Source of the DNA: Eubacteriales bacterium
GTDB taxonomy: Bacteria > Bacillota > Clostridia > Oscillospirales > UBA644
Assembly (NCBI GenBank): GCA_045542115.1
Contig: JAZQKK010000019.1
Span: 133,362-197,361, forward strand
DNA: 64,000 nucleotides
Direction: 5' to 3'
Within the stretch, counting starts at the first letter, position 1, and every line of letters begins with the position of its first letter. A model generated the notes under the pieces. The model was not told the DNA's origin. It made no database searches and saw nothing but the letters and a program-made list of their open reading frames with translations. Of this stretch, positions 7,092 to 63,714 are shown one piece after another. A program made the position numbers and the translations under genes.

Positions 7092-7096
7092 AATCT

Positions 7097-7133
7097 CCGG
7101 CGGAACGTTCTTCCGCCGGCCAACCCTTTTTTT
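7097..7133 (+). terminator. rho-independent terminator after the hydrolase gene
   Basis: CCGGCGGAA (7097-7105) pairs with TTCCGCCGG (7111-7119). A T7 run lies at 7127-7133. Confidence 0.5.
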
Positions 7134-7167
7134 CCCTCGTTTCCCATCTTAAAAACGGAGTTTTACT

Positions 7168-35365: not shown

Positions 35366-35427
35366 TCCGCGGTACTCCTTTTTTGAAAATTTATCCAAAT
35401 AGGTTTTAACTTTTTAGGATATACTCC

Positions 35428-35524: not shown

Positions 35525-36340
35525 ATGAATGTAATTGACTATGCCGAACAATTCCGAAAAACCAACGCCCCCTTTGCCGTGGACCGTACCAATCTGTCGG
35601 TTGCCTCCCGAACCACGCCGCCCATCGTTCGCGCGTTCGGATGCTGCTCAGTGGAATACGTCATTCGGGGGAAGGGAACGGTTACCGAAAACAATACGAC
35701 CTTTCACGTCAAGGCGGGGGACGTCTTTATTTTGCACAAAGGGGCGTACCATAACTATTTCCCCGACCCGGACGACCCCTGGGTCCGTATCTGGGTGCAA
35801 ATCTCAGGGCCTTCCAGCGAAGAAATTCTCCGGGCGTACGGCCTTTCCCAAGTAAATCATATTCCCAATTTCAATCTGGAAGAAGATTTGTTTAAGATTC
35901 GTTCGGTCATTCAAAACGATACCGACCTTACAACGGTGGACCGGGAAGGGCCCCGGCTTTGCCTGAAGCTGATGCAAAAGATTCACGAAGAACTTCGCCG
36001 CCGGGAACTGGTGGAGCATACCCCTTCCCTTCCGAAGCTGGTTCGGGAGCGAATCGACAATCTCCCCAACGGATACATCACCTTAGACCAACTGTCCGAA
36101 GAGTTTCATTTTTCCAAACAATATATTATCCGCCGGTTCAAAGACCGTTACGGCATCACGCCCCACGAATACATTCTCAATCGGAGAACGGGGCTGGCCC
36201 AGTCTTTGCTGAAGCGAACCGACCTTTCGGTGAAACAGATTTCAGACCAGTTGCAGTTTTGCGATATCGCCTATTTTACCGATTTCTTTCACCGCCGCAC
36301 CGGAATGACGCCTTTGGAATACCGCAAGAAGTACCGGTGA
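35525..36340 (+). CDS. AraC-family transcriptional regulator (cupin + HTH)
   Basis: Cupin-like N-terminal domain (FHVKAGDVFILHKGAYHNY) and a C-terminal double HTH ending GMTPLEYRKKYR. Confidence 0.85.
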   Translation: MNVIDYAEQFRKTNAPFAVDRTNLSVASRTTPPIVRAFGCCSVEYVIRGKGTVTENNTTFHVKAGDVFILHKGAYHNYFPDPDDPWVRIWVQISGPSSEEILRAYGLSQVNHIPNFNLEEDLFKIRSVIQNDTDLTTVDREGPRLCLKLMQKIHEELRRRELVEHTPSLPKLVRERIDNLPNGYITLDQLSEEFHFSKQYIIRRFKDRYGITPHEYILNRRTGLAQSLLKRTDLSVKQISDQLQFCDIAYFTDFFHRRTGMTPLEYRKKYR

Positions 36341-41816: not shown

Positions 41817-42710
41817 TTATTCTTCGGTAAGTTCGAGATAAGCAATCCGTTGCCGGTAGAGATGGACGCCGGTGGCTCTATGGTTTCCCAGGTGTCCCAA
41901 ATGAAGGCTGATCAAGTCCCCTTTTTTGACCGGGAGAGTGGCGGTAAAGAAAATCGGGTCAAAGGTTCGAAGCACGACCGGCTCCTGCAACGGAACGCCG
42001 TTCCGATAAAGGTGGACTTCCGTCGGCTGATGCCAATGGCGAAAATTTGCGTTCCGTCCCACGGAAAAGAAAATTTCCGCCGTCCCGGAATGGGGACAGT
42101 GAAACGTCCGCACCGACCGGGCAACTTTCCCGGGGTGCATTCCATAGCCTTGGTCCCGGTTCAGACAGTACCAATAGGGGTCGTAAAATTCCCGGGAGGG
42201 GGCTTGGAAGTGGTCCTTCTCGTCGTCCCATTCCATCAACCCGTATTCCCCCGTATCGGGACGGAAGTAGGCAAACTCCCAAAGTCCGTCGGGGGTGGGG
42301 TTTTGTCCTTTGCCCCACATTTCTTCGGAATAGCGGTATTCGTATTCTTTGACGAACCGCGCGCCGGTCTTCCCCTCTTTGAGTTGGGAGGGCAATACGC
42401 CGAAATGAGACATCACTGCTTTACGAAATCCCCGGGGGGTATACGACAACGCCTCGGCCGTCTTGACGGCAGACCAGCCCCGTTGCAGCAATTCCTTGGC
42501 CTTTTCCATCCGAAGCCGCCGGAGAAAGTCTCCCAGAGTCTCTCCGTAATAGGTGCGAAAGAGGAGATTTAAACGACGGGGAGAATATCCGGTTTTTCGA
42601 GCCACGTCTTCGATGCGAAGATTGTCTTGGTAATGCTGCAAAGCATAATTCATAATCCGCAGAAAATCCGAATGAAAACACCGATTGATAATATCTCCCC
42701 CTTCCCCCAA
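41817..42710 (-). CDS. AraC-family regulator with reversed architecture (N-terminal HTH, unassigned ~190-aa C-terminal domain)
   Basis: The double HTH spans aa ~20-115 (IEDVARKTGYSPRRLNLLFR ... FRKAVMSHFGVLPSQL). The remainder matches no domain I recognise. Its stop lies 35 nt upstream of the 1789-aa gene, with no terminator between. Confidence 0.7.
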   Translation of the reverse strand: MGEGGDIINRCFHSDFLRIMNYALQHYQDNLRIEDVARKTGYSPRRLNLLFRTYYGETLGDFLRRLRMEKAKELLQRGWSAVKTAEALSYTPRGFRKAVMSHFGVLPSQLKEGKTGARFVKEYEYRYSEEMWGKGQNPTPDGLWEFAYFRPDTGEYGLMEWDDEKDHFQAPSREFYDPYWYCLNRDQGYGMHPGKVARSVRTFHCPHSGTAEIFFSVGRNANFRHWHQPTEVHLYRNGVPLQEPVVLRTFDPIFFTATLPVKKGDLISLHLGHLGNHRATGVHLYRQRIAYLELTEE

Positions 42711-42868: not shown

Positions 42869-45037
42869 TTATTTGACTTCGGTGAGGTGGACTTTGAAGG
42901 TGGTGAAATCACCCATAATTTCAAGCCGGTTTACCCCGCCGTTCATCCACACGCTGCCGGGGCGGACGGTCCCGTCCTGGTCGGCGTACAATTTGTCCGG
43001 GTCAAGGCCGCGGAAATGAACCGTGCGCCGGCGAACCCGGGGACGGTTGTGGATGCACACGAAGGTCAGCAAGGCCTCGGACTTGTCTTCGGAAACATAG
43101 CACCAGGCACATTCTTCCCGGTTGGGGGGCAGGACCCGGTACAATTCCCCGAAATGAATCACGTCGTAATACTTGTGGTATTCCGCAATCTGACCTTTGA
43201 CCGCTTCTTTTTCTTCCTCGGACATCTTTGTCACGTCCAATTCATATCCGAACGACCCCGCCAAAGCCACGTCGCAACGGGTCTGCAAGGGGGTGATGCG
43301 GCCGGTCTGATGATTGGGAACGGCGGACACGTGAGAGGATACGGCAGAGGTAGGATAGCACATCGACGTGCCGTACTGAATATCCAGTCGGTCCATCGCG
43401 TCGGTATTGTCACTGGTCCAATATTGGGGAGAGTAATACAGCATCGCTGGGTCAAACCGTCCGCCGCCGGAAGCACATCCTTCCAAAAGCAGGTCGGGAT
43501 GGGCAGTCAAAAGCCGGTCGAGAAGGGCGTACAGCCCCAAAACGTACCGGTGGAAAATTTCCTTCTGCCGTTCGGGAGCAAGCAGGGCGCTGCCCACTTC
43601 GGTGAGATACCGGTTAAAGTCCCACTTAATGTATTCAATCCTGGCGTTTTTCATCACGTTGTCCATACAGTTGAACAGGTAATCCCGCACGTCGGGACGG
43701 GACATATCCAGAACGTACTGATTCCGGCTGGTACACATCGGACGGCCTTCTGCGTGCAGACACCAATCGGGATGGGCACGGTACAAATCACTGTCGGGGT
43801 TCACCATTTCCGGCTCGAACCACAGACCGAATTTCATTCCCAGGCCGTGGATACGGTGGGAGAGAAGCCCCAAACCGCCCTTTAATTTTTCTTCGTTGAC
43901 AAACCAATCCCCAAGCCCGGATTTATCGCTGTTCCGGGACCCGAACCAGCCGTCGTCGAGAACCAGCATCTCCACGCCCAGTTCCCCGGCTTGCTTGGCG
44001 ATGTTGTAAATCTTTTCTTCGTCGAAATCGAAATACGTGCCTTCCCAGTTGTTGATAAGAAGGGGGCGCTTGGCATTTTTCCAAGGGCCGCGGCAGAGAT
44101 TGTTTCGGTACAGTTTGTGGAAGGTCCGGCTCATTCCGCCCAAGCCGTCGGCAGAGAAGACAGCCACCGCTTCGGGAGTCTCAAAGGTCTTGCCCGGTTC
44201 CAGTTTCCAGCCGAAGTTGGTGGGGTTGATTCCCATAATCAGCCGCACGTCTCCGTCCACTTGCAGTTCGGTCTGAATGGAGAAGTTGCCGCTGTAAACA
44301 AAGTTAAAGCCGTAAGCCGCGCCTACGTCTTCGTTGGTGTCCTTGTCCACGAGGGCAACGAAGGGGTTGTGGTGGTGGCTCGACGCCCCTTCCAAACTTT
44401 CCACGGCGGTAATTCCGTGGATAAGGTCGGCCCGTTCGAAGTTCCGCTCTCTGCCCCATTCTCCGTACAGATGGCACAACTGCCAATTGCCGAAGGGCAT
44501 ATCCAGGCAAAGAGAGTAGGCCCGTTCGATATCCATCGTCTTGTCGGAAGCGTTTTCAATCACCGCCCGGCGGGTGATGGCGTCGTAGATTTCAAACACG
44601 GAATAGAACAACGTCACCTTCAAACCGGTCACTTTGTCTTCGGTCAATACTTCCAGGGTGGTCACTTCGTCTTCGGTACCGTAGGTGGCGGGCTGACCGG
44701 GAATGGCCGGCTTGCCGGGATAGATTTTATGGGAAACGTAGCGGATGTCCGTGGCGGCATCCCCCCAAGCGTTGCGAACTTGGAGGGCAGAGACCCGAAA
44801 ATCCCCCGTGCCGTTGCATCCGTATTCCAAAGCGGCGGTACAGGGCGACAAGGTTCCGTCGGCGGTCTTCGGGCCCCGGGCCAAACGACCGGAATACTCC
44901 CTCATATCACAAGGGGGAACCTTCGGCCCGTAATAATCGTGCAACAAAAATCCCCCATCGTTGATGTGAAACGCGTACGACGAGTTGGGGGTCGAAAGGT
45001 GAAAAGAACGAAATTCGTCCAAGAATTGAATGGGCAT
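42869..45037 (-). CDS. alpha-galactosidase, glycoside hydrolase family 36
   Basis: YIKWDFNRYL and LEGCASGGGRFD catalytic-region motifs, with the N-terminal MPIQFLDEF..FHLSTPNSSY pattern. Start set at the second ATG (45037), preceded by AAAGGAGA. Confidence 0.88.
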   Translation of the reverse strand: MPIQFLDEFRSFHLSTPNSSYAFHINDGGFLLHDYYGPKVPPCDMREYSGRLARGPKTADGTLSPCTAALEYGCNGTGDFRVSALQVRNAWGDAATDIRYVSHKIYPGKPAIPGQPATYGTEDEVTTLEVLTEDKVTGLKVTLFYSVFEIYDAITRRAVIENASDKTMDIERAYSLCLDMPFGNWQLCHLYGEWGRERNFERADLIHGITAVESLEGASSHHHNPFVALVDKDTNEDVGAAYGFNFVYSGNFSIQTELQVDGDVRLIMGINPTNFGWKLEPGKTFETPEAVAVFSADGLGGMSRTFHKLYRNNLCRGPWKNAKRPLLINNWEGTYFDFDEEKIYNIAKQAGELGVEMLVLDDGWFGSRNSDKSGLGDWFVNEEKLKGGLGLLSHRIHGLGMKFGLWFEPEMVNPDSDLYRAHPDWCLHAEGRPMCTSRNQYVLDMSRPDVRDYLFNCMDNVMKNARIEYIKWDFNRYLTEVGSALLAPERQKEIFHRYVLGLYALLDRLLTAHPDLLLEGCASGGGRFDPAMLYYSPQYWTSDNTDAMDRLDIQYGTSMCYPTSAVSSHVSAVPNHQTGRITPLQTRCDVALAGSFGYELDVTKMSEEEKEAVKGQIAEYHKYYDVIHFGELYRVLPPNREECAWCYVSEDKSEALLTFVCIHNRPRVRRRTVHFRGLDPDKLYADQDGTVRPGSVWMNGGVNRLEIMGDFTTFKVHLTEVK

Positions 45038-45070
45038 AGCCAATCTCCTTTTTTCCATATTTTACGATCT

Positions 45071-45100
45071 ATTATACCATAAATATCCCCGGCGTGTCAA
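45071..45100 (-). promoter_or_regulatory. near-consensus promoter of the GH36 gene
   Basis: Minus strand: TTGACA (45100-45095), 18 nt spacer, TGG-TATAAT (45076-45071). Confidence 0.6.
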
Positions 45101-45145: not shown

Positions 45146-46555
45146 TTAAAACATCATATATTCCATAAACAGGTCGGAAAACAGTTTCTCTCCCGACAGG
45201 TCTACCGCCTCTGCCGAAGATAGAGGCAGCGGCAATGAACCGGAACAGGCGTATTGCACCGTTCCCGAAAGGCTTGCGTTGTTGACCCCGTGGAAGATTT
45301 CTTGCAATTCTTCGGGAATCAACCCCACGAAGGCGGCGCTTTTCACGTTCAGTCCGGCGGAGAATCCCCCCGCCACGTACAACCCGTCTACGGCGTCGTA
45401 AGAAATTCCCGCCTGATGCAAAAGACATTCCAGCCCTGCCCGGACGGCGGATTTGGCCAACTGAAATTCCCGGATATCCTTCCCCGTCAATTCCACGCCG
45501 GGGCAAAGGGGTAAGGGGTCTTCTTCCAAAAATCCGGTCTCGTCGATATCTTCTTCCCGGACGGCCCGGGCAACGGCGTCCACCAACCCGGTGGCACACA
45601 ATCCCTTGGCTTCGCCCCCGCCCAAGACCGTCACGTCCCCCTGGGGAGAGACGGCACAGACCGCTCCGTCGGAGGCACTCATCCCGCAAGAGATATTCGC
45701 CCCCTCGAAGCAAGGACCGGCGGCAGCCGCGGTGCAAAGGATACGGCGTTCGTTATAAAGGGCGATTTCCGCGTTGGTCCCCAAATCCAAAAGAATCCGA
45801 TATTTTCCGGAGGGCGGCATTCCCACGGCGTTGATGCCCGCCACGATGTCCGCCCCCACAAAGGCGGAGATCCCGGGCAGAGCGGTGACGGTGTTCACTT
45901 GGAAAAATCCCAAATCTTCCCCCGGCACGGTGCGGAAATCCAAAAAGGCGGGGGTATAGGGAGCCACCCCCAGAGATGCACAGTTTTCCCCAAAGAAGAG
46001 ATGGAGCATCGTGGTGTTCCCCGCCACGTACATCGTCTCCACCGAAGAAAGGGCGAAGGGAGACAGTAAGCGGAAGGTCAATTCTTTGATTCGTTCCAGC
46101 AAAACGTTTTGCAGAGACTCCGGTCCGTTTTTGGCGCAATGGGCAATCCGGGAAATGACGTCTGCCCCGAAGACCCGTTGAGGGTTGGGGGCGGTCACGG
46201 TGCGAATCACCGCATTTTCATCCAAAGAGACCAACGCCAGGGCCAGGGTGGTCGTCCCGATATCCAGGCAGAGGCAGACCCGTTCGGTCAGCCGCCCCGT
46301 CTCGGCCCCCGCAGTGACCGAAACCAGGTTTTCTTTTTCGGGAAGAATCACTTCCCCATCCCCGGAAAGCATCGTACGGCAGGCCAAAACCGGACTGCCG
46401 TTTAACAAGACCGTACATTTTTTACAGGTCCCCCGCCCCCCGCAGGGATGGGGCACAAAATAGCCGTTATCGGCTAAAATTTCGCTGAGAAGCCGGGGAG
46501 ATTCCACCGAAATCTCCCTTGTTGTTCCGTTTTGAAGGACGGTTAATCGTAACAC
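45146..46555 (-). CDS. RACo-like reductive activator of corrinoid proteins (2Fe-2S ferredoxin domain + ASKHA/DUF4445 ATPase)
   Basis: GTG start with RBS GGAAGGAG. N-terminal PCGGRGTCKKCTV...LAC ferredoxin motif, then a sugar-kinase/actin-like fold pattern (LDIGTTT, LDLGTNAE). Confidence 0.75.
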   Translation of the reverse strand: MLRLTVLQNGTTREISVESPRLLSEILADNGYFVPHPCGGRGTCKKCTVLLNGSPVLACRTMLSGDGEVILPEKENLVSVTAGAETGRLTERVCLCLDIGTTTLALALVSLDENAVIRTVTAPNPQRVFGADVISRIAHCAKNGPESLQNVLLERIKELTFRLLSPFALSSVETMYVAGNTTMLHLFFGENCASLGVAPYTPAFLDFRTVPGEDLGFFQVNTVTALPGISAFVGADIVAGINAVGMPPSGKYRILLDLGTNAEIALYNERRILCTAAAAGPCFEGANISCGMSASDGAVCAVSPQGDVTVLGGGEAKGLCATGLVDAVARAVREEDIDETGFLEEDPLPLCPGVELTGKDIREFQLAKSAVRAGLECLLHQAGISYDAVDGLYVAGGFSAGLNVKSAAFVGLIPEELQEIFHGVNNASLSGTVQYACSGSLPLPLSSAEAVDLSGEKLFSDLFMEYMMF

Positions 46556-46559
46556 GGCG

Positions 46560-47117
46560 TTACTCCTTCCATAAAAGCAGGCCGAAATAGGTCACGGTGT
46601 CGGCTCCGTTGATGTATTTCATCGACGTATTTTTCACCGTGGCACTTACGTTGATTCCATAGGCTTCCAAGGAGGAGATGGCTTTGTCCGGAAACCGGCA
46701 AGGCAGATTTTCCCGTTTGGAGCAGGTGGGACAAACGCCGCATCCCCCCTTGGACAGATGGAGATACTCTCCCCATCCCGCCTCTTTGAGCAGGCGGTCC
46801 AAGGCTTGACTTCGTTGGCTTTGCTCCCGGCCGGCGTCTTGCATCCCCTCAAAATCAAAACTGTCTTCCAGGGGAAAGACCGATTGATAGAGAAATCCTC
46901 TGGAATAAGATTGCACCTGGGCAATCAGTTGGTCAATCTCTCCCACGTCCGGAGGGCACATCCAACATTTTCCGTAAACGCCGCAGGCGTTTGCTTCGCA
47001 TTGCCCCCGAAACCGCCGGTCGCAGACGATTTGGGAAACGTCAATCACTTCACCGTTGGTGCACCCCACGGATTTTGCCAAGGCGACAAGGTCTGTATTT
47101 GCAAAATCAGTTTTCAT
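46560..47117 (-). CDS. DUF2284-family Cys-rich metal-binding protein
   Basis: 185 aa. CEANACGVYGKCWMCPP and GGCGVCPTC motifs. This family typically accompanies corrinoid methyltransferase genes. Confidence 0.65.
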   Translation of the reverse strand: MKTDFANTDLVALAKSVGCTNGEVIDVSQIVCDRRFRGQCEANACGVYGKCWMCPPDVGEIDQLIAQVQSYSRGFLYQSVFPLEDSFDFEGMQDAGREQSQRSQALDRLLKEAGWGEYLHLSKGGCGVCPTCSKRENLPCRFPDKAISSLEAYGINVSATVKNTSMKYINGADTVTYFGLLLWKE

Positions 47118-48111
47118 AAAATTCCTTCACCGCCCCGAAAAAGGCGTCCAAATTTTCCCACGGAGTGGCCGGGGGAACGTCGCAGCCGGAAGAAACGGTA
47201 AAGTTTTCGTATCCGGCGCATTTTTCCAGCAGTTCCAACGTCTTTGCCCGCACGGTGTCGGGGTCGGACATCCGCAGAATCCCGGCGGGGTCCACGTTTC
47301 CCATTACGGGAAGGTCTTTGGGGAAGGTGTCCAGCATTTCTTTCAAATCAATGGAGTTGCCGAAGTGGTATCCGGCGGCTCCGATGGACGCAATGGAATC
47401 GGCCATCCGAATCACGTTGTCGCCGCAGTTGTGATAAATCAAAAGATACGAATCGTCTTGCACCGCGTCTACGATTTTCTTCATATAGGGGGCGGAAAAT
47501 TCTTCTTCCAGGGCGGGGGAAAGAAGTCCCGCCACCGGCTCTGCCACCATAATGCCGTCGGCACCGGCGGCCTTGAAGGCTTTGGCGTATTCCACCAAAA
47601 ATTCCGTGGCCTTTTCCAACACGGTGTGGACCATATCCGGCTCGTCGTAGCAGTCCATCATAATTTCCGATACGTCCAACAGGCGGGCGGCCAGAGAAAA
47701 CGGTCCAATCATTCCGGCGAAGACCGGCTTGTCGGTGATTTGAGACACCGCCTTGGCAATGGCTTGCACGTAAAGCCCGGAACGGCCATCCCCCACCCTG
47801 GGGACGGGAAGAGCCTCGGCGCCTTCTTCGTCTTCCACCAAACGGCCGGTGACGGTGGGAACTTCATCGTCGGAAAAGCGGACGGCGGCCCCGAAACATT
47901 CCGCTTCCACGGAAAGGTCCATAAAACCGATGGCGGCGGCGCTGTCGCCACGGTTTGCCACCAAAACCATCCCTTTCGCCTGCTTGTCGCTGTCGAAAAT
48001 CAGTTCTTTCACGGTGCATCCCAGCAACGAAATGCAGGGAAAGGACAAAATGGGAAAGGCTTTTTTCGATTGGGGAAGGTTTTGCAACCACTCTCGCATA
48101 TTTTTCTTCAT
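47107..48111 (-). CDS. URO-D / MtaA-CmuA-family methyltransferase, paralog 4 (classical HxC...C zinc pattern)
   Basis: 334 aa TIM-barrel pattern. YHNCGD (HxC) and SSGCDVPP. RBS AAAGGAAAAGGA. Confidence 0.7.
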   Translation of the reverse strand: MKKNMREWLQNLPQSKKAFPILSFPCISLLGCTVKELIFDSDKQAKGMVLVANRGDSAAAIGFMDLSVEAECFGAAVRFSDDEVPTVTGRLVEDEEGAEALPVPRVGDGRSGLYVQAIAKAVSQITDKPVFAGMIGPFSLAARLLDVSEIMMDCYDEPDMVHTVLEKATEFLVEYAKAFKAAGADGIMVAEPVAGLLSPALEEEFSAPYMKKIVDAVQDDSYLLIYHNCGDNVIRMADSIASIGAAGYHFGNSIDLKEMLDTFPKDLPVMGNVDPAGILRMSDPDTVRAKTLELLEKCAGYENFTVSSGCDVPPATPWENLDAFFGAVKEFYEN

Positions 48112-48123
48112 ATCCTTTTCCTT

Positions 48124-48354
48124 TCAAGAATTATTCCCCGTAATAGGCGTCCAAGACTTCGGGAACGGTCTTCGCCCGGACCATCCGGTTTTCGGGGGAG
48201 GTGTGACGGTGGGGACTTGAATCAAATCAACGCTTTCTACGGCTTCCAACACGTCTTCCAAGGGGTTCAAACCGCGTGTCTGCCTGAAAATACTTCCGGA
48301 GGACAGACCGGGTCCTCCCGTTGCGTTATCATAAAAATACTTACTTAAAATCAA
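48124..48354 (-). other. 239-nt gap holding a doubtful TTG-start ORF; possible frameshifted remnant
   Basis: Only ORF in the gap. Its last third is Pro/Gly/Trp-rich junk. The +1 frame after a C5 run (about 48195-48199) instead reads ENRMVRAKTVPEVLDAYYGE and stops at 48131. Confidence 0.25.
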
Positions 48355-49421
48355 TACTTCCCTAATTTGTGGGCCAGGTCGGAGATTTGCTTCATCGTGT
48401 CCAAAGAAACGGAGTTGGGAATGGAATGGTCGGAAGCGAAGACGTAGCCGCCCCCTTGTTTCATCATCGGAAGGATGCGCTCCATTTCCGCCAACACCAA
48501 CTCCGGCTTATCCCACAGTTGGGCATTGATGCCCCCGTGGAAGGCCAATTTGTCCCCATAGGTCTCTTTCAGTTTTTTCGGGTCCATTCCCGCTTTGATT
48601 TCCAGGGGATTGAGCATATCCAACCCGATATCCACCAAATCACCAATCAACGGTTCAACGTAACCGCAAGAGTGCAGTTCCGCGAACATTCCCCGTTCGT
48701 GGGCCCAATCGATGGCCTTCTTGTGAAAAGGCTTCAATAGTTCCCGATAGGTTTCGGGAGAAAAGAAGGGAGCCCCTTTATACCCCATATCGTCCCACCA
48801 GAAAATGCCGTCGAATTGATAGCCGGCATCCAGAATCTTCTGGGCCTGACGCAGCGTTGTCGTCAGATAGGTATCCACCACGTCGGTAAACCATTCGGGT
48901 TCGTCCAACATTGCCACCAACACGTTTTCCGTGCCAATCATATGGGAATGGGCCACGTCAAAACCGAACCACAGATTCAGCTGACGGTACCGCTGTTCTT
49001 TCTCCCAGATAGGATAACTTCGCTTTAACCCGGCCCAGTCGATGCGGTCTTCTGCGTCGGCAAGCATCCGGGCCTTGGCTTCCTCCCAACGGTCGGAGTC
49101 ACAGTAATAACAATCCAACACTTCGGGGGTGGAATCCAATTCCTTGAACACCTTTTGGGTCTGTCCCCATTTGGTGGTGATGATACGATAGCGGTCGGTC
49201 TCTTCCAATACCTTGTATTCAAAGCGGGGAGAATTGTCGGGGAGCGTGTTGCTGATCTTATCGAAGCCGAAATAATCCTTCCAATCTACGTCAGCGGGCA
49301 TTCCTTCCCGTTTCCAACGGGCGACGGTTCCGCCCCAAGCGGAATCAATCATCATCAACCGGTCCACTTCCTGGTGGCGGAAGGTACGAAGCATACGTTC
49401 TCTTGAAGTCAATTCTTTCAT
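48351..49421 (-). CDS. URO-D / MtaA-family methyltransferase, paralog 3
   Basis: Start moved to the ATG at 49421 (RBS AAGGGAG). MKELTSRERMLRTFRHQEVDR N-terminus typical of the family. AELHSCGYV. Confidence 0.7.
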   Translation of the reverse strand: MKELTSRERMLRTFRHQEVDRLMMIDSAWGGTVARWKREGMPADVDWKDYFGFDKISNTLPDNSPRFEYKVLEETDRYRIITTKWGQTQKVFKELDSTPEVLDCYYCDSDRWEEAKARMLADAEDRIDWAGLKRSYPIWEKEQRYRQLNLWFGFDVAHSHMIGTENVLVAMLDEPEWFTDVVDTYLTTTLRQAQKILDAGYQFDGIFWWDDMGYKGAPFFSPETYRELLKPFHKKAIDWAHERGMFAELHSCGYVEPLIGDLVDIGLDMLNPLEIKAGMDPKKLKETYGDKLAFHGGINAQLWDKPELVLAEMERILPMMKQGGGYVFASDHSIPNSVSLDTMKQISDLAHKLGKY

Positions 49422-49425
49422 AGGA

Positions 49426-50394
49426 TTACTCCCTTGCAAGATTGTAAATCAAATCAAAGGCAAATTCCAGGTCTTCCACGGTACAGTGGTCCTGAACGAA
49501 GTGGGAGGTGCAACAAACCCAACGCTTGCCTTTCAGGATCGAAAAGACCCGGCGGATTTCCGATTCCAGTTTGTCTTGGGGCAGAATCCCCAGGACAGAC
49601 TGGACGCAGATTCCGCCCAGCGTTGCAAATTTATCCTGATATTTTTCTAAGTAGAGTTCGTAGGGCATATTGGCATTTTCCTGCCAGGGGTGAATCAAGT
49701 CAAACCCTATGTCCACAATGCCGTCCAGCACTTTTGCCACACAGCCGTCGGAGTGCAAAGACGCCAAAACGCCCCGGGAGTGAACGTGGTCCACGACTTT
49801 TTTCAGATTGGGATAAATCAAATCCCACCAAACCTCGGGGGAGAACATCAAATCTTTCTGGGAACCCCAGTCGTCGGAGATGTGAATCATATCCGCGCCG
49901 GCGTCGATGCTCTGGTCGGCGCATTGAATCACCCAATCGGCGTGCCGGCGGTACAGTTCCGCCATTTCATCGGGGTACATCAGAAGCCACGCCAGGTGGT
50001 CTTCGATTCCGAAGGCACCGTTGAAACATTCAAAGAATCCGGGGGTCTGCATATAACAGAACCGACCCCGCTGCTTGTGAAAAGCGATGGATTTTTTGAT
50101 ATTTTCGAAAGTCTCTTCGGTCTTGGGGGGCAGATAATAATCGTGTTCCAGCAAAACGTCGGGGGAAACTTCGCCGTTTTCTTCCCGAATCTGCTCCAAC
50201 ACTTCTTGTTTGAAGACGCGAGGGCCGCCGAAAATGTGGGCAGCGTCGAATTCGTAGTGGTCTTCAAAGGCCTCCACAGAGCCCCATTTTTCGGTAATCT
50301 GCTCTTCCAGATTCGCCCGGACCCAGCCATAGATGGGCTGACGGTCCACAGGCTTGCCAAGAATGGCATTGCGCACGCGTTCGGTACTGTTCAT
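49426..50394 (-). CDS. URO-D / MtaA-family methyltransferase, paralog 2
   Basis: Start at the ATG at 50394 (RBS AAGGAG). MNSTERVRNAILGKPVDRQP N-terminus. SLHSDGCV. Confidence 0.7.
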   Translation of the reverse strand: MNSTERVRNAILGKPVDRQPIYGWVRANLEEQITEKWGSVEAFEDHYEFDAAHIFGGPRVFKQEVLEQIREENGEVSPDVLLEHDYYLPPKTEETFENIKKSIAFHKQRGRFCYMQTPGFFECFNGAFGIEDHLAWLLMYPDEMAELYRRHADWVIQCADQSIDAGADMIHISDDWGSQKDLMFSPEVWWDLIYPNLKKVVDHVHSRGVLASLHSDGCVAKVLDGIVDIGFDLIHPWQENANMPYELYLEKYQDKFATLGGICVQSVLGILPQDKLESEIRRVFSILKGKRWVCCTSHFVQDHCTVEDLEFAFDLIYNLARE

Positions 50395-50413
50395 CCTCAA
50401 AACTCCTTGTTAG

Positions 50414-51943
50414 TTAAGCATTTTTGCACAATGCAACGGCGGCGTCGGCGGCGGAAGCGGCGTCAACGGTATAGCAGTCCGCTCCGATGGCTTCGCAGAA
50501 TTTCTGATTGACGGGAGCGCCTCCAATCATAATCTTCACACGATCCCGGATACCGGCGGCTTCGGCGGCCTTGACCACGTCGGCCATTACGTCCATCGTG
50601 GTGGTGAGAAGGGCGGAGCAGCAGATAACCTGGCAGCCCTGTTCTTTGGCGGTCTGCACGAAGGTTTCCGCGGGAACGTCGGTGCCAAGGTCGATAACTT
50701 CCAGGCCCTTGCCTTCCATCATCATTTTTACCAGGTTTTTACCGATGTCGTGCAGGTCGCCCTGTACCGTACCGATACAAACTTTACCGGCGGATTCCAC
50801 GCCGCTGGAAATCAGGTGGGGTTTGAGCACGGTGATACCCATATTCATCGCCCGGGCCGCGACGAGAACTTCGGGAACGTAAACTTCGTTGTTCTTGAAT
50901 TTTTCCCCAATAATCCCCATTCCGGCCAAGAGGCCTTCTTCCAGAATCTTGGCAGGTTCGCATCCTTCGTCGATGGCCTGCTGGACCATTTCTTTTACGA
51001 TTTTGCCTTTGCCTTTTTGCAGTTGTTCGGAAATTTCGCTCAGAATAATCATAATCTTTTCTCCCTTCGATTCAAACGAATGTTTTTCATTATATTGATT
51101 CCGATATTGAATCGGAGTCATTTCCGCATAGGTATGAAAACTGCGGTAAAAGGACGGCAGGTCCCGAAGTCCACACTCTTCCATAATCCGGTTGACCGAC
51201 CAATCGGTCTGTTGTAACAGGGTACACGCGTGGGCCATTCGCCGTTCCCGAAGATAATCGGAAAAGGTCTTCCCCACCGCGGTCTTAAACAGCCGGCTCA
51301 GTTGGGATTGGCTGACGAACCGTTGTTCTGCCACCGTTTCCAGAGTCAGCGTCTCGGAAGAAAATTCCTCGTTGACCGTTTGCAAGACCGATTGTACCAG
51401 GGCCTTTTCTTTGCCTTTGACGGCGGAATCGTTGCGAATCGCCCCGTTCATATACCGGGTCAGGGTAATCAGCAACACCGAAAGGTACGCGGAGGTGGCC
51501 TCGGCCCAGTCGGAGCGGGATTGCTCCACTTCCTTGGCAATGCCGTCGAACAGAACGAACACCTCGTTCAGCGTGTCCCGGTTCAGGGTGGCGTAGCAGA
51601 CCGTCGCCCCTTCGCAGAACACCCCGTAGCAAAACCGGGGGCGGTCTTCGTTGCCCAAATCCCCGCTCAGGAATACCTTGGGGTCAAAAAGGATGCGCCG
51701 CACTTCCGGGCCCGGCCCCTCTTCCCCTTCGTAACCGTGGGGGGTGTGGGGGGCAATGACGCACAGATCCCCTTCGTTGCAGGGGATGGCTTGGTTCAAA
51801 ATCCGGTGGATGCCGTTGCCGGCGACCACAAGGTCAATCTCCACCCAACCGCCGGGATACAACCGGGCGGCGGTACGGTCCGCCCACCGAACCGTTTCGG
51901 TCAGGATGGGCCCCGCCGTGGCATACGTTTTCTTCCCGTCCAT
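50414..51943 (-). CDS. AraC-type regulator (cupin + double HTH, aa 1-~295) in frame with a complete MtaC/MtbC-like corrinoid-binding protein (aa 298-509)
   Basis: Single 509-codon ORF. The HTH ends ...MTPIQYRNQY. The corrinoid part begins at the internal ATG 51052, which has its own SD (AAGGGAGAAAAGATTATG). It carries GDLHDIGKNLV (DxHxxG), SALLTTTM and IMIGGAP. Confidence 0.75.
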   Translation of the reverse strand: MDGKKTYATAGPILTETVRWADRTAARLYPGGWVEIDLVVAGNGIHRILNQAIPCNEGDLCVIAPHTPHGYEGEEGPGPEVRRILFDPKVFLSGDLGNEDRPRFCYGVFCEGATVCYATLNRDTLNEVFVLFDGIAKEVEQSRSDWAEATSAYLSVLLITLTRYMNGAIRNDSAVKGKEKALVQSVLQTVNEEFSSETLTLETVAEQRFVSQSQLSRLFKTAVGKTFSDYLRERRMAHACTLLQQTDWSVNRIMEECGLRDLPSFYRSFHTYAEMTPIQYRNQYNEKHSFESKGEKIMIILSEISEQLQKGKGKIVKEMVQQAIDEGCEPAKILEEGLLAGMGIIGEKFKNNEVYVPEVLVAARAMNMGITVLKPHLISSGVESAGKVCIGTVQGDLHDIGKNLVKMMMEGKGLEVIDLGTDVPAETFVQTAKEQGCQVICCSALLTTTMDVMADVVKAAEAAGIRDRVKIMIGGAPVNQKFCEAIGADCYTVDAASAADAAVALCKNA

Positions 51944-51953
51944 ACTTCACCGT

Positions 51954-53072
51954 TCAGAATGTAATCTTTTTCATCTCTTCCGCGTAATACTGTACCAATT
52001 CAAATTTGGTGCCGGGCATCAGACGATGGTCCGGGCAGGGGATAAATCCGCCCAAAGAGGCCAGCCGCTGCATCCGTTCCAATTCTTGGTCCACCGCGGC
52101 TTTGTCTTTGCGAAGAGCCGTCTTATCCATTCCGCCCACGCCCAACATTCCCTTGCCGAACTTGTTCCGGGCGGCTTCGAATTGGTCGCCCCACGTTCCT
52201 ACTTCGATGGGGAACATCGTGTTGACTCCGTTTTCAAACCAGGTGGGCAACAGCGCTTCGGTCACCCCGTCGCAGTCGAGGGAGATAACGTCAATGCCGT
52301 ATTGCCGGAACAGGGCGTTGCGTTTTTCATAATGCTTTGCGCACAGTTCGTCAAAGATTCCCGGTGCAATCAGCGGTCCGTTCTTAAAGCAGATGTCTTC
52401 CCAATAATGGGCAAAATCGAATTTCGCCCCGGTCTCCAACACGGCCTTCACACATTGATATTGCATTTCCGCGTAAGTGTCCACAATATCCGCAAACAAC
52501 GCTTCGTCTTCGTCGTAGAGAAGATAACTCATCCCCACCACCGAAGTCATATTCCGGATATCCCCAAGAATACTTCCCGCACTCAGCCCCACGGGGACGT
52601 CCCAGGGACGGGTGTCGTTGAAGGTTTTCCAATATTCCATATCGATGCGGTCGGGCGTGAACTGCATTTTGGGGAGATACAATTCTTCAAAAGCCTTACG
52701 GTCTTTCAACTGATAGTCGTCTTCCGAAGGAATGGATTGGTTTCCCGGCTTTTGCCGTTCAATCAGCCCCAGGGAATTCTGAATCCGTTGCGTCCCGTCG
52801 GGGAAGGTCTCCAACACTTTGGTCTCAAAGAGAGGGCGAAGACGTTTGTCTGCTCCCCGGCAACGGTACCAGTTAAAGTCCCAGCCGATGATTTTGTCCA
52901 ATTCCCGGTCGGCGTCGTTGCCGTCCCCCCAGGCTTTGGCCAAATCCATCGAAATCTTACCTTGCTCTGCCCACTCCAACAACAACTCGTTCCAATACCC
53001 GAAATGTACGGCAGGCATCCGGTCAGCAGGCTGATAGTGAAGAATGTTCATCGCACGCTCCCGATTGGTCAT
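51954..53072 (-). CDS. URO-D / MtaA-family methyltransferase, paralog 1 (most divergent)
   Basis: RBS GAGGAG. MTNRERAMNILHYQPADRMP N-terminus. 372 aa. First gene of the operon. Confidence 0.65.
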   Translation of the reverse strand: MTNRERAMNILHYQPADRMPAVHFGYWNELLLEWAEQGKISMDLAKAWGDGNDADRELDKIIGWDFNWYRCRGADKRLRPLFETKVLETFPDGTQRIQNSLGLIERQKPGNQSIPSEDDYQLKDRKAFEELYLPKMQFTPDRIDMEYWKTFNDTRPWDVPVGLSAGSILGDIRNMTSVVGMSYLLYDEDEALFADIVDTYAEMQYQCVKAVLETGAKFDFAHYWEDICFKNGPLIAPGIFDELCAKHYEKRNALFRQYGIDVISLDCDGVTEALLPTWFENGVNTMFPIEVGTWGDQFEAARNKFGKGMLGVGGMDKTALRKDKAAVDQELERMQRLASLGGFIPCPDHRLMPGTKFELVQYYAEEMKKITF

Positions 53073-53115
53073 AGCACACGCTCCTCATCTAAAATCTTTT
53101 ATGTTCTATGATATC

Positions 53116-53144
53116 ATTGTACCAAAAATAAAATGGATTGTAAA
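53116..53144 (-). promoter_or_regulatory. promoter of the corrinoid methyltransferase operon
   Basis: Minus strand: TTTACA (53144-53139), 17 nt spacer, TGG-TACAAT (53121-53116), about 45 nt upstream of the start codon. Confidence 0.6.
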
Positions 53145-53253
53145 TAGGGTTTTCTTTCCGTTTTTAACTTTTTTTCGAAAGAAAACCAAAGTCGCCGTTC
53201 TTTTCTCGGTTTTCAGCAGACTGTTTTCCTATTATATTGATGGGGAAAACCGC

Positions 53254-53498
53254 AAAAAAATTCGGCACCTCCGGAAAGACCACCGGAAGTGCCGATATTG
53301 ATAAAATAATATCCGGCTCTTTGGGGGGAACAAAGAGCCGGATGCAGTCGGCGGAGAGGGGCCCGCCGAGATTGTTTTATGAGAATCCACCAACCTTGTC
53401 GCGAAGACGCGGGAATCCATAAAACAATAAAGGAGAGAGTGGGCTGCGTTCCCACTACCGAATAAGCGTTTTTCCCCGGAAATAGGGGGAATTTTTAT
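53254..53498 (-). ncRNA. candidate stand-alone structured RNA (~200-245 nt), family not recognised
   Basis: Lies between a perfect consensus promoter (53505-53533) and two successive hairpin terminators. The first is the 13-bp stem ATCCGGCTCTTTG/CAAAGAGCCGGAT at 53311-53343, followed by AUAUUAUUUUAU. The second is GGCACTTCCGG/CCGGAGGTGCC at 53264-53293, followed by U7. Internal helices include AGTGGG/CCCACT, ATTGTTTTATG/CATAAAACAAT, CGCG/CGCG and CGGCGG/CCGCCG. No RBS-preceded ORF. Confidence 0.5.
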
Positions 53499-53504
53499 GG
53501 CATT

Positions 53505-53533
53505 ATTATAGCACAGGGGGATAAAAATGTCAA
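53505..53533 (-). promoter_or_regulatory. perfect consensus sigma-A promoter driving the candidate RNA
   Basis: Minus strand: TTGACA (53533-53528), 17 nt spacer, TGC-TATAAT (53510-53505). Confidence 0.7.
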
Positions 53534-53690
53534 GTGATTTTTTATAAATTTATAAAATTCATTCGTTTTGGAGATAAGAGCCAAAGATGGAAGATAAAAT
53601 TTGTAAATATTGCACAAAAACAGAGGATAAATATCGGTTTTACAACCTTTTTCTCTTGTATTATTATACATTTATGCAAATGTTTTAAGC

Positions 53691-53721
53691 AAAAAAAAGA
53701 CCGGCAGAATGTCTCTGCCGG
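53691..53721 (-). terminator. rho-independent terminator of the SGNH hydrolase gene
   Basis: Minus strand: CCGGCAGA-GACAT-TCTGCCGG followed by TCTTTTTTTT. Confidence 0.8.
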
Positions 53722-53736
53722 CAGATTGGATTCCGT

Positions 53737-54504
53737 TCAGTGGGGGAGAAAACCAACGTGGTTAAAATCCTTGTGATTGTGGCGGATGATGTAATCGGTA
53801 TAGGACAGTATCATCTTTGCCGTCAAGGCGTATCCCATCGGATTCATATGACCGTTCAGGAAGAACTTTTCCCGGAAGGCCTCGTCGTAACAAGGGGCGT
53901 AGCGATGCAGGTCAATCACGTAGCACCCGTCGAATTTCTTTGCAATTTCGTAGAGCAGTTCCGTAATTTTTGCTCCCTGCTCCGTCCACTCGGGCTTTTT
54001 GTCCCTGGGGGGCGCAATCAAGAACAGTTTTGCTCCCGGGGAGATTTCCCGATACCGTTGAAGAATCGTTCCGTAGCGGCCGGCGAAGGTTTCGGGATTG
54101 TTGTCGTGCCAATCCTCTTTTACGTCATCGGCGGTGCCCAATTGCTGATGGCAATTGAAAATATCGTTCACCCCAAGGGCAACGTAGTAGGCTTGGCATT
54201 TCAACTCCGGATTCCAGAACCCCTTTTCGTCTGCAAAGGTATCCAGATACCACTTGCAAGTCATTCCCCCCCGGGAGAAATTATAAACCTTGCTCCCGGT
54301 GGTCCGGGCCATAAACTGCCCCCAGGAATACTCGTACATATCGTAGTATCCTCTACTGCCGTCTTCTTTGAAAATCTCAAATTCTCCGGAAGAAAGGCTG
54401 TCGCCCACACAGGCTACCGTGCGAAAGATGGAGCAAAAGCCGCCGTCGTCCACCAAGCGGTCCAGGGGCTGTTCCTTTTCGTCAAAATAATGCATCCAAT
54501 CCAT
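53737..54504 (-). CDS. SGNH/GDSL-family hydrolase
   Basis: Block I VACVGDSLSSGE and a block V-like C-terminal DxxH region (NGHMNPMG). 255 aa. Confidence 0.75.
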   Translation of the reverse strand: MDWMHYFDEKEQPLDRLVDDGGFCSIFRTVACVGDSLSSGEFEIFKEDGSRGYYDMYEYSWGQFMARTTGSKVYNFSRGGMTCKWYLDTFADEKGFWNPELKCQAYYVALGVNDIFNCHQQLGTADDVKEDWHDNNPETFAGRYGTILQRYREISPGAKLFLIAPPRDKKPEWTEQGAKITELLYEIAKKFDGCYVIDLHRYAPCYDEAFREKFFLNGHMNPMGYALTAKMILSYTDYIIRHNHKDFNHVGFLPH

Positions 54505-62160: not shown

Positions 62161-63714
62161 ATGAGAATAAGAAGTATTCTTAGTATTTTTTTGGCCGGAA
62201 TCCTGCTTCTTCTGTGCGGTTGTTCCAACGTTCCGGAAGACCACTACGACGTGGAGGAAGCCGGCAAGATGCGGGAAGACCGGCAGGTCTATCTGACGGT
62301 TTGGTCCTGGCAGATTACGTCGGACGAAGAGGCGCAAGCCTATGCAGCAAAGGCGAAGGAATATGGCTTTACCGCCGTGGATTTCGGCATTTTATGGACG
62401 AAATTCGAGCCGCTGCAAGACCATTTCGAATGGACGTATCTGGACCAAGTGGTCAAGACCTTCACCGATGCCGGGTTGTACGTCTCTCTGCAACCCCTGT
62501 TCTGGACGAAGGATTTGTCCTGGGCACACAATCTTGCCCTTCAAGAAACAAAGACCCGAAAGGTCTATGAAGTGGAAGGGCGCGGGTCGTATCTCTCTTT
62601 TTCCGACCCGAAGACCCGGATGATTCTGGAAAACTCCCTGCTGAACTTTGCCCTTCACGCTTCTCAGACCTACGGAACGAATCTGACCCGCTGGGGCGTG
62701 CGGCTTTCCTGCTTTGGAGAATTGGACTATTCAGTAAATGAAAGTTTGGATTTTTCCGGTGCTGCGGCACGGGAATTTTACGATTATCTCAAAGAAATTT
62801 ACGGAACCTGGGGAAATTTGGCGGAAAAGAAAAATCTGCCCATCGCCACCCGGGAAGACTTGGAAGCAATGTCTTTGTCCGATATTTCGGCGGCTTGTCC
62901 CGGCGAGTGGCGGCGGTTCCGCCAGGAGAGTCTGTTTCGGATCGTGGATACCGTTACGACAATCTATCGGAGCGTAGATAAAACCATTCCTATCCTGTTT
63001 TCTTTGGGGACCTTCGGAAACGGAATGAACACCGCCTATTCCGGAGTCGTGGATTTGTGGTCCGCCACCGCAGAGCGGGACGTGGACATTATCGGTCTCT
63101 CCTTTTGCGACGGAGCCGACCCGAAGATGATGTTGTCCCTACTCTCGTCGCTGACCACCAAGAAAATCGCTGTGGAAGTGGACGGAGCCTGGGCCTTGGA
63201 AGAAGGACGGGACATTTCTTCCCAAGTGGCTCTCTGCGGAAATTACGGCGTGTTCTCTCTTGCCACGGCAAACTTCACCTTAGAACAATTGGACACTCAT
63301 AAAAACACATTGACCGGTTATCCGGCGCTGTTTTTTACCGAACCGTCCTTGGGCGAACGGGACCCGGGACAGGGAATTTTGATTCTCTCCAACGGCCTTG
63401 CCCAGGCAGACCCACCCCCTTCGTACGATGCGTTGTACGGAGATATTTTCCAAAAACTGTCGGAAAACGGGGCTCGTCCCGTACGGTTCGTCACCGAACA
63501 ACAGATTGCTTCCGGAGAGATTTCTCTGGAAGGTGTCAAAACGCTGTATGCCGGTAATATCAATGGTTCCGCCCCCGTAAGCCTTGCCTTTGCCGAGGCC
63601 TTTGCAGCCACGGAAACCACCCTGTACGGCAACGTAACCTTCACCGCCTTGGACGGCTCTGCCCTGCCGGAAGAGACGGCGTCCGCCCTCTCCGCCCGGG
63701 TGCAGGCACAATAA
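62161..63714 (+). CDS. lipoprotein with a GH42-like / TIM-barrel glycosidase-like N-terminal region (function uncertain)
   Basis: Lipobox LLLLCGC. AKEYGFTAVDFGILWTKFEPLQDHFEWTYLDQVV resembles the opening of GH42/GH35-type barrels. 517 aa. Confidence 0.6.
   Translation: MRIRSILSIFLAGILLLLCGCSNVPEDHYDVEEAGKMREDRQVYLTVWSWQITSDEEAQAYAAKAKEYGFTAVDFGILWTKFEPLQDHFEWTYLDQVVKTFTDAGLYVSLQPLFWTKDLSWAHNLALQETKTRKVYEVEGRGSYLSFSDPKTRMILENSLLNFALHASQTYGTNLTRWGVRLSCFGELDYSVNESLDFSGAAAREFYDYLKEIYGTWGNLAEKKNLPIATREDLEAMSLSDISAACPGEWRRFRQESLFRIVDTVTTIYRSVDKTIPILFSLGTFGNGMNTAYSGVVDLWSATAERDVDIIGLSFCDGADPKMMLSLLSSLTTKKIAVEVDGAWALEEGRDISSQVALCGNYGVFSLATANFTLEQLDTHKNTLTGYPALFFTEPSLGERDPGQGILILSNGLAQADPPPSYDALYGDIFQKLSENGARPVRFVTEQQIASGEISLEGVKTLYAGNINGSAPVSLAFAEAFAATETTLYGNVTFTALDGSALPEETASALSARVQAQ

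Follow-up and report, generated by a model that had tools for sequence, protein, structure and literature searches.

A putative two-in-one gene encoding an AraC-type regulator fused to a corrinoid protein in a bacterial methyltransferase operon

An open reading frame (ORF) on the minus strand of a 64,000-nucleotide stretch of Eubacteriales DNA (assembly GCA_045542115.1, contig JAZQKK010000019.1, positions 133,362 to 197,361; hereafter the window) joins an AraC-family transcriptional regulator and a complete corrinoid protein in a single polypeptide, and it does so inside an operon for corrinoid-dependent methyl transfer. We consider it rather probable that this is a two-in-one gene, from which a regulator–corrinoid fusion that activates its own operon is produced together with a free methyl carrier that is translated from an internal start. 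The case is built on the conservation of the fusion in related genomes, on the nucleotide-level conservation of a ribosome-binding site and start codon at the domain junction, and on the loss of that start in loci that possess a separate carrier gene.

Organization of the fused gene

An earlier note, which was made from the letters of the window alone, described the ORF as an AraC regulator running on into a full corrinoid protein. That description is borne out: the 509 residues contain four Pfam domains in one polypeptide (AraC_binding 34–93, HTH_18/HTH_AraC 205–283, B12-binding_2 302–374 and B12-binding 387–502), and all motifs quoted in the note occur in the translation (MTPIQYRNQY at 275–284, GDLHDIGKNLV at 395–405, SALLTTTM at 443–450 and IMIGGAP at 471–477). 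Only minor figures need correction: the linker measures 13 instead of about 12 residues, and the calculated masses are 55.7 and 22.2 kDa rather than 57 and 23 kDa. The relevant parts of the gene are:

50414–51943, minus strand: full-length ORF with ATG start, 509 amino acids (aa), calculated mass 55.7 kDa; AraC-family regulator fused to a corrinoid protein
51587–51907, minus strand: N-terminal cupin-type AraC ligand-binding domain, residues ~13–119 (Pfam AraC_binding 34–93; AlphaFold2 beta-strands 13–119 with a predicted local distance difference test score, pLDDT, of ~90)
51077–51415, minus strand: AraC double helix-turn-helix (HTH) DNA-binding region (HTH_18 1.6e-20, HTH_AraC 7.9e-16; PDB matches to the DNA-binding domains of MarA, SoxS and YesN)
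51053–51091, minus strand: linker NEKHSFESKGEKI, residues 285–297, 13 aa, ending at Met298
51060–51067, minus strand: internal Shine-Dalgarno (SD) sequence AAGGGAGA, within linker codons K293-G294-E295, with 8 nt between GGAG and ATG
51050–51052, minus strand: internal ATG, Met298, putative start of the nested free corrinoid protein
50414–51052, minus strand: nested ORF for a 212-aa (22.2 kDa) corrinoid protein of the MtaC/MtbC type, by Pfam, NCBIfam and PDB matches
50735–50761, minus strand: GDLHDIGKN, the DxHxxG motif with the lower axial cobalt ligand His398; D396, H398 and G401 are invariant in 78 sequences

The regulator half is that of an ordinary AraC protein. Its sensor scores as an AraC-subfamily cupin (AraC_binding 25.5 bits against a cut-off of 21.1) and is modelled as a beta-barrel (residues 13–119) that is followed by long helices (122–168). 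The DNA-binding part is of the AraC/XylS type, with 73.6 bits for HTH_18 (cut-off 33.6) and 58.2 bits for HTH_AraC (cut-off 26.6), and AlphaFold2 gives it seven helices over residues 177–289.

The second half has the complete build of a methyltransferase corrinoid protein, i.e. a four-helix cap (residues 302–374; PF02607, 66.4 bits) and a Rossmann-type B12-binding domain (387–502; PF02310, 89.4 bits), with the motif set for base-off/His-on cobalamin binding, GDLHDIG (395–401), SALL (443–446) and GGAP (474–477), invariant in the 78 sequences. Its nearest solved relatives are a Moorella protein (1Y80, 1.7e-53), MttC (7XCN_M, 5e-47), Desulfitobacterium Dhaf4611 (4JGI) and MtmC (3EZX). The curated NCBIfam cut-offs are missed (TIGR02370 pyl_corrinoid, 200.7 versus 215.3 bits; MtgC, 211.6 versus 370; MtbC, 166.8 versus 350), so that the module belongs to a related but distinct subfamily. 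Structure prediction for the full ORF, one of the checks put forward in the earlier note, was successful for the parts: with an alignment of 78 homologues all modules are well folded (mean pLDDT 86), and confidence drops in the linker.

Conservation of the fusion and its linker

Homologues were sampled in 80 loci, fetched from 558 related stretches that were found by scanning one genome per GTDB species. Most of these stretches come from metagenome-assembled genomes of ruminant and other animal guts, with hosts in the Oscillospiraceae, Acutalibacteraceae and Lachnospiraceae, including Acetatifactor. A single frame, free of stops, spans both halves of the protein in 78 of the 80 loci, and a protein search gave at least 120 clusters at 90% identity with full-length fusion homologues (55–70% identity, 93–99% coverage) carrying the same four Pfam domains. 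On this comparative evidence, the fusion is genuine and conserved. Homologues go by generic database names, either "cobalamin-dependent protein" or "helix-turn-helix domain-containing protein"; because gene callers assign such a single name, methyltransferase operons of this kind seem to be without a corrinoid protein, which is a lesson for annotation.

A stop codon between the HTH region and the corrinoid module, which the earlier note proposed to look for in orthologous loci, is absent from the same 78 and present in locus L078. Here (7011–8933) the AraC-type regulator, 422 aa long and with an N-terminal sensor rich in Cys, ends in a stop; after 9 nt begins an unfused corrinoid protein of 214 aa, which shares 73% identity with residues 298–509. 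The other exception is L080, in which a stand-alone corrinoid protein is found.

The linker is the least conserved part of the protein, with 9–25 aa, 17 different lengths and 73 distinct DNA sequences in 79 loci. Every change in its length keeps the reading frame, and neither a stop nor a frameshift occurs in the linker of any of these loci, even though 53% of the linker codons are a single mutation away from a stop. That such variable sequences are never interrupted argues that read-through into the corrinoid module is under selection.

The internal translation start

According to the earlier note, the corrinoid part possesses its own ATG (51052) and a good SD sequence; both are present, with AAGGGAGA located 8 nt upstream of the start codon. 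Met298 aligns with Met1 of the stand-alone corrinoid proteins of L080 and L078. Across this junction the full-length protein reads ...NQYNEKHSFESK, and the N-terminal peptide of a product made from the internal start would be MIILSEISEQLQK; the SD segment AAGGGAGAA could be recoded silently as AAAGGCGAA.

In an alignment of the junction from 79 loci, almost every locus has the Met, with K-G-E ahead of it in most cases in an otherwise variable linker, while at the DNA level an AAGGAG(A) SD site is found 7–9 nt ahead of the ATG across loci. The ATG occurs in all 71 loci that have no separate corrinoid-protein gene, and an SD match of at least 5 nt precedes it in 58 of these, as compared with 8% of 1191 other in-frame ATGs and 46% of the starts of downstream genes. 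The site is also kept where the peptide is not: in L041, L051, L007 and L068 GGAG is retained in another reading frame, and linkers that read QKES, KKEP, NKEKK or EKEKS still hold AAGGAG. Of 67 such Gly codons in the linker, 65 are GGA, versus 22% of the Gly codons elsewhere in the same ORFs. Furthermore, the RNA in a 60-nt window at the internal ATG is far less structured than in the rest of the ORF (mean z +2.3), only 3% of the other windows being as open. Together, the codon bias, the frame-independent GGAG, the ATG and SD frequencies and the open RNA indicate that the constraint acts on nucleotides. With a conserved in-frame start codon, a properly spaced SD sequence and accessible RNA, the comparative evidence shows that the internal start is under selection, and it suggests that the free carrier is also made from it. 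A promoter ahead of the corrinoid part was looked for as well, and the only candidate, a 9-of-12 consensus match that overlaps the start itself, was counted as no evidence.

Loci with a separate carrier gene

Eight loci carry a separate corrinoid-protein gene beside the fusion. Seven of them show a fused gene from which ATG, SD sequence or both have disappeared (L004, L005, L039, L044, L050, L056 and L070); the start codon itself is lost in six and kept in two, and both ATG and a good SD sequence are present in one. The open-RNA signal is weak in these loci (z 0 to 1.5). The difference in start retention between loci with and without a separate carrier has a Fisher p value of 1.8e-4, which is not corrected for shared ancestry. 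In a neighbour-joining tree the separate-carrier cases fall into at least five separate lineages. Duplication thus took place independently at least five times, and ATG and/or SD were lost afterwards in five lineages. Each time, the free copy is found near the start-bearing fused modules of relatives and the fused copy on a long branch. For example, the free copy of L005 is 94.8% identical to the fused module of L002 and its fused copy 79.7%; for L044 as compared with the fused module of L033, these values are 91.5% and 82.2%.

The fused copies without a start have nevertheless not decayed. They all keep GDLHDIGKN, SALLTTT and GGAP, and in two lineage pairs the ratio of nonsynonymous to synonymous substitution rates (dN/dS) of the tethered B12 module is 0.063 (L004/L005) and 0.103 (L056/L070), similar to the AraC half (0.09–0.12), with the free copies under stronger constraint (0.004–0.035). 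These comparisons show purifying selection on the tethered module in its own right. We read the whole pattern as subfunctionalisation of an ancestral two-product gene, with an internal start that serves to make the free carrier and a tethered module that has a separate, selected role in the regulator. Since the start is lost beside a separate carrier and the tethered module stays under purifying selection, both the full-length protein and the free carrier appear to be functional. The earlier suggestion that two products are possible has thus gained in strength, through the conserved ATG, an SD sequence kept at the nucleotide level, the unstructured RNA, and the loss of the start where a separate carrier exists.

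The methyltransferase operon

The fusion gene is part of a co-directional cluster on the minus strand, running from 53072 to 45146 in the order uA, fusion, uB, uC, uD, DUF2284 and RACo. Its placement inside a methyltransferase operon is hereby confirmed, with four genes of the URO-D/MtaA family, DUF2284 and RACo as partners, and this neighbourhood is kept across the 80 loci. The genes that accompany the fusion are:

51954–53072, minus strand: uA, divergent URO-D family member without the HxC zinc motif; putative substrate:corrinoid methyltransferase (MT1)
49426–50400, minus strand: uB, URO-D/MtaA-CmuA family; putative MT1
48351–49439, minus strand: uC, URO-D/MtaA-CmuA family with HSC motif; putative MT1
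47107–48111, minus strand: uD, MtaA-like methylcobamide methyltransferase with HNC...C zinc motif (URO-D 2.2e-59; PDB 4AY7, MtaA, 1.3e-21); putative MT2
46560–47117, minus strand: DUF2284, Cys-rich predicted metal-binding protein
45146–46555, minus strand: RACo, reductive activase of corrinoid proteins with 2Fe-2S and ASKHA domains

The cluster member that is kept across loci is uD, which is found in nearly all of them. In about 70 of the 80 loci the fused gene encodes the only corrinoid protein beside uD, DUF2284, RACo and a variable set of uA, uB and uC genes. In the 64-kb window, too, no other stand-alone corrinoid protein is present; the sole other B12 domain lies within a 792-aa ORF on the plus strand (8043–10421), probably a short methionine-synthase-like protein, the C-terminal part of which (9810–10403) is 34% identical to the corrinoid module. 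In L080, the corrinoid protein that stands alone shares 82% identity with residues 298–509, and orthologues of uC, uD and RACo follow it. Because it is the only corrinoid protein in most loci, because of its similarity to the L080 protein, and because its relatives in the PDB are corrinoid proteins of methyltransferases and not CarH, we conclude from sequence comparison that the module is the methyl carrier of the pathway.

The gap between uC and uD (48112–48350, minus strand) is unusually long, 239 nt, and holds a GGAGGAC...GTCCTCC hairpin. It may serve as an attenuator or RNA-processing site within the operon; a 76-codon ORF in the gap was rejected as a gene, its translation being of low complexity. 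Downstream of the cluster lies a gene for a GH36 alpha-galactosidase (42869–45058), which has a perfect 12-of-12 sigma-70 consensus promoter with extended -10 element of its own (45071–45100, minus strand) and is for that reason a transcription unit separate from the methyltransferase operon. Carbohydrate-utilisation genes often surround these operons, in the window this GH36 gene and a GH42-like gene (62161–63714). To judge from the translations alone, a divergent 760-aa ORF of L080 (3279–5561) resembles a glycoside hydrolase and a secreted protein of L078 (9230–10930) a sugar-binding protein. Such neighbours give a hint that the methyl donors may be plant-derived methylated compounds. Further along the minus strand of the window are two very large ORFs, 29870–35398 (1842 aa) and 36412–41781 (1789 aa), flanked by genes for AraC-type regulators at 35525–36340 and 41817–42710.

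Promoter and candidate operator

Three elements precede the operon:

53116–53144, minus strand: operon promoter upstream of uA, TTTACA, 17-nt spacer, TG-TACAAT
53177–53187, minus strand: candidate operator, promoter-distal arm, GGTTTTCTTTC when read along with transcription, part of a perfect 11-nt inverted repeat
53148–53158, minus strand: candidate operator, promoter-proximal arm, GAAAGAAAACC, which ends 3 nt before the -35 hexamer

The layout GGTTTTCTTTC-N18-GAAAGAAAACC is found as an identical inverted repeat at the equivalent position in L003, L004, L005 and L006, and more distant loci have the variant GGTTTTGTTTC ... ACC.TATTTAC. A loose composite version of the pattern gave too many background hits, and a tighter two-box pattern was used instead: T.TatGGTTTTgTTtC, then aAAAag.Aa....aCC.TATTTa, then tg.TAtAaT, at a fixed spacing of 44–46 nt, which occurs in 53 of 79 loci. 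The operator-like repeat is always located upstream of the first gene of the cluster, be it uB, uA or the fusion itself. It is likely, on this pattern of conservation, that the repeat is the operator of the fusion protein, and its position has the geometry expected of an AraC-type activator that touches RNA polymerase at the -35 box.

No cobalamin riboswitch or other Rfam match was found, either in the window at the gathering threshold or in 53000–53800 at E<=1. Just upstream of the operon promoter, on the minus strand, is a candidate small structured RNA (53255–53533), with a perfect TTGACA-17-TG-TATAAT promoter (53533–53505), a transcript of ~190–240 nt with a minimum free energy of -100.4 kcal/mol (z -8.65), and two tandem intrinsic terminators at its end (53343–53311 and 53295–53262). 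It has no match in Rfam and no blastn similarity in the 80 related loci.

Proposed mechanism and alternative explanations

In the mechanism that we propose, ribosomes that start at the ATG at 51943 would produce the 509-aa regulator, with cupin sensor, double HTH, flexible linker and corrinoid module, whereas those that start at the internal SD/ATG (51067–51060 / 51052) would produce the 212-aa free corrinoid protein. The latter would carry the methyl group between the uA, uB and uC methyltransferases and the MtaA-like uD, and would be re-reduced by RACo once oxidised. The full-length protein would bind the inverted repeat beside the -35 box and activate its own operon; its cupin domain would sense a small-molecule, substrate-related ligand, and its tethered corrinoid module, of the same sequence as the carrier, would report on corrinoid availability and state. 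The operon would then be induced only when substrate and usable cofactor coincide (AND logic). That the full-length protein binds DNA and activates transcription, and what kind of corrinoid signal it reads, is what we infer from this arrangement.

A coupling of transcription to the loading, methylation or redox state of the cofactor, which the earlier note considered possible, gains some indirect support from the purifying selection that persists on the tethered B12 module once it no longer doubles as carrier. The corrinoid signal could be holo versus apo protein, which is the simplest reading and would parallel the control of eut by EutR and a riboswitch. A more far-reaching possibility, to which we give a minor chance, is that sensing is coupled to catalysis. 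Since tethered module and free carrier are identical in sequence, the methyltransferases of the operon would also methylate and demethylate the regulator, and RACo would reduce it; its Co(I), CH3-Co(III) or Co(II) state might then mirror methyl flux and switch DNA binding or activation.

Several observations weigh against the proposed mechanism. In L029 the internal ATG and SD sequence are both kept in spite of a separate carrier gene, and the SD match is shorter than 5 nt in 13 of the 71 loci without such a gene (4 nt in 12, none in one). The two-box pattern is missed in 26 of 79 loci, some of them on truncated contigs, and as the operator was assigned by co-occurrence only, another regulator could bind the site. 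The varying length of the linker argues against rigid allosteric coupling, and AlphaFold2 predicts no interface between the domains: the predicted template modelling score (pTM) is only 0.42, so that the model is uninformative about the packing of the B12 module on the AraC domains. In the model the modules look as if joined by a flexible tether, compatible with signalling through oligomerisation or partner binding without supporting either.

The same three features, variable linker, missing interface and low pTM, are what one would expect of a passenger fusion, which would have arisen when an araC-type gene and a neighbouring corrinoid-protein gene lost the stop that kept them apart. Translation of the carrier would still begin at its own SD/ATG, and the B12 module would convey no signal and bring at most co-expression or co-localisation. 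The unfused order of genes from which such a fusion could start does exist in L078. Neutral fusions, however, should split again rapidly with so many linker codons close to a stop, yet none of 79 linkers is interrupted and all lengths remain in frame. Moreover, a duplication supplied a separate carrier on at least five independent occasions, and the tethered module still persisted, with all its B12 ligand motifs and, in the two lineage pairs, a dN/dS of 0.06–0.10. We consider this explanation rather unlikely.

It is more doubtful still that the 509-aa protein is the single product and acts as regulator and carrier at once, the internal SD/ATG being a relic or the result of amino-acid constraint (KGEKIM). 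Corrinoid modules that are fused to pathway partners are common, URO-D–corrinoid fusions among them, and an SD-like sequence is present at the full-length start as well in most loci. But it is the nucleotides of the internal SD site that are conserved and not the peptide, as seen from GGAG in other frames and from GGA in 65 of 67 Gly codons; the site lies in a window of open RNA that is typical of initiation regions; and ATG, SD or both disappear in seven of the eight loci where a separate gene provides the carrier.

We give hardly any credit to a light sensor of the CarH/LitR kind, in which the B12 module would bind adenosylcobalamin and photolysis would switch DNA binding. The plan of a DNA-binding domain with a four-helix-bundle/Rossmann B12 module is shared, and there is a weak match to the sequence of CarH in the PDB comparison (4e-5), but the module is much closer to methyltransferase corrinoid proteins (1Y80, 1.7e-53; MttC, 5e-47), the gene is situated within a methyltransferase/RACo operon, and the host bacteria are anaerobes that live in the guts of ruminants and other animals. 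CarH touches the upper adenosyl ligand with a Wx9EH motif of its helical bundle; residues 298–509 contain no Trp, so that this motif cannot be present. Finally, TAA and TGA triplets do lie, out of frame, where the AraC protein would be expected to end, and the earlier note cautioned that one indel error could join a ~295-aa AraC gene to a ~212-aa corrinoid-protein gene. This artefact of sequencing or assembly is ruled out, for practical purposes, by the in-frame fusion, which recurs in 78 of 80 assemblies that are independent and stem from many studies and hosts, and by the at least 120 protein clusters.

Comparison with known systems

B12-binding domains on transcription factors have so far been known mainly as light sensors (CarH/LitR), and the cobalamin dependence of the induction of B12 pathways via EutR or via riboswitch RNAs. 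The proposed mechanism, if true, adds a third solution, an AraC activator that bears a copy of the pathway's own corrinoid carrier and a carrier that comes from a nested start, in a fusion family that occurs in hundreds of species of gut Clostridia. Regulator and catalytic component share one coding sequence, and natural duplications have already split the two roles. The arrangement might also yield a protein sensor, usable in anaerobes, for the availability of corrinoid or its methylation state, and if sensing were indeed coupled to catalysis, the transcription factor would follow its pathway by means of the cofactor chemistry of that same pathway. As the earlier note had supposed, no characterised AraC-B12 fusion appears to exist: literature searches that were aimed at an AraC-B12 or other regulator–corrinoid fusion found none, nor any earlier description of a B12-domain transcription factor with an AraC partner and a nested carrier gene, and no solved structure in the PDB comparison covers the AraC and corrinoid halves together.

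Like the fusion, CarH and LitR combine a DNA-binding domain and a four-helix-bundle/Rossmann B12 module in one polypeptide, and the control of transcription by the state of B12 is the role that we propose for the fusion as well. The differences are considerable. The DNA-binding domain is MerR in CarH/LitR and AraC/XylS in the fusion protein, which has no MerR match in Pfam; the B12 module of the fusion follows C-terminally on a complete sensor and DNA-binding regulator; it is of the methyltransferase-carrier type (1Y80, MttC, Dhaf4611) and devoid of Trp and Wx9EH; it would also be made separately as a catalytic carrier, with different cofactor chemistry; and its hosts, unlike those of photoreceptors, live in the dark gut.

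As a corrinoid protein, the module of residues 298–509 resembles MtaC, MtbC, MttC, MtgC and the corrinoid proteins of bacterial O-demethylases, with the complete fold and the DxHxxG, SxL and GG motifs, and like MtaC/MtbC-type proteins it is encoded together with URO-D-family methyltransferases and a RACo activase. It deviates from them in remaining below the equivalog and subfamily cut-offs and in being nested in the 3' part of a regulator gene. Corrinoid modules that are covalently joined to a partner from the same pathway are also known from MtsD/F/H, CmuA, MetH and URO-D+B12 proteins, where the partner is a methyltransferase instead of a DNA-binding regulator; URO-D–corrinoid fusions are common. 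The mlp clusters contain MtaA-like homologues in a different system, without AraC or DUF2284 (PMC10418091).

Two other regulator–corrinoid fusions were encountered among the homologues. Protein P0208 (L081, 1680–3452) consists of PocR, HTH_18, B12-binding_2 and B12-binding domains, the sensor being PocR instead of a cupin. A mobile element has truncated the B12 domain, and insertion-sequence (IS) and phage-like genes come next; the corrinoid module begins with a Met that lacks an SD sequence. P0154 is a distant HTH–corrinoid fusion (36% identity) that has AAGGAG and ATG at the start of its corrinoid module. Judged by these two proteins, AraC–corrinoid fusions probably arose more than once.

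The use of an internal SD/ATG to obtain a C-terminal protein besides the full-length one is known from CheA-L/CheA-S, IF2 alpha/beta and ClpB 93/79. The fusion gene would differ from these isoform pairs in that its short product acts in catalysis as a cofactor carrier, with the long product as the transcription factor for that carrier.

Among regulators, EutR and PocR are AraC-type activators that tie the induction of B12-dependent catabolic operons to the substrate, and EutR also to cobalamin; eut is in addition under B12-riboswitch control, with AND logic. The same AND logic is proposed for the fusion. EutR and PocR differ from it in lacking a canonical Rossmann-type B12-binding domain and in serving adenosylcobalamin radical pathways, not methyl transfer. 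The closest characterised regulator is MtaR, a PocR-AraC activator that acetogens encode as the first gene of their methanol methyltransferase (mta) operon and that activates this operon from a binding region just upstream of the -35 box (PMC13602510). Like the fusion, it is an AraC-family activator that is encoded inside the corrinoid methyltransferase operon under its control. The fusion protein of the window has no match to PF10114 (PocR) in Pfam, whereas MtaR senses through a PocR domain, lacks a B12 domain and is accompanied by a corrinoid protein, MtaC, that has a gene of its own. An unfused layout like that of MtaR is seen in L078, beside a close relative of the corrinoid protein that is otherwise part of the fusion.

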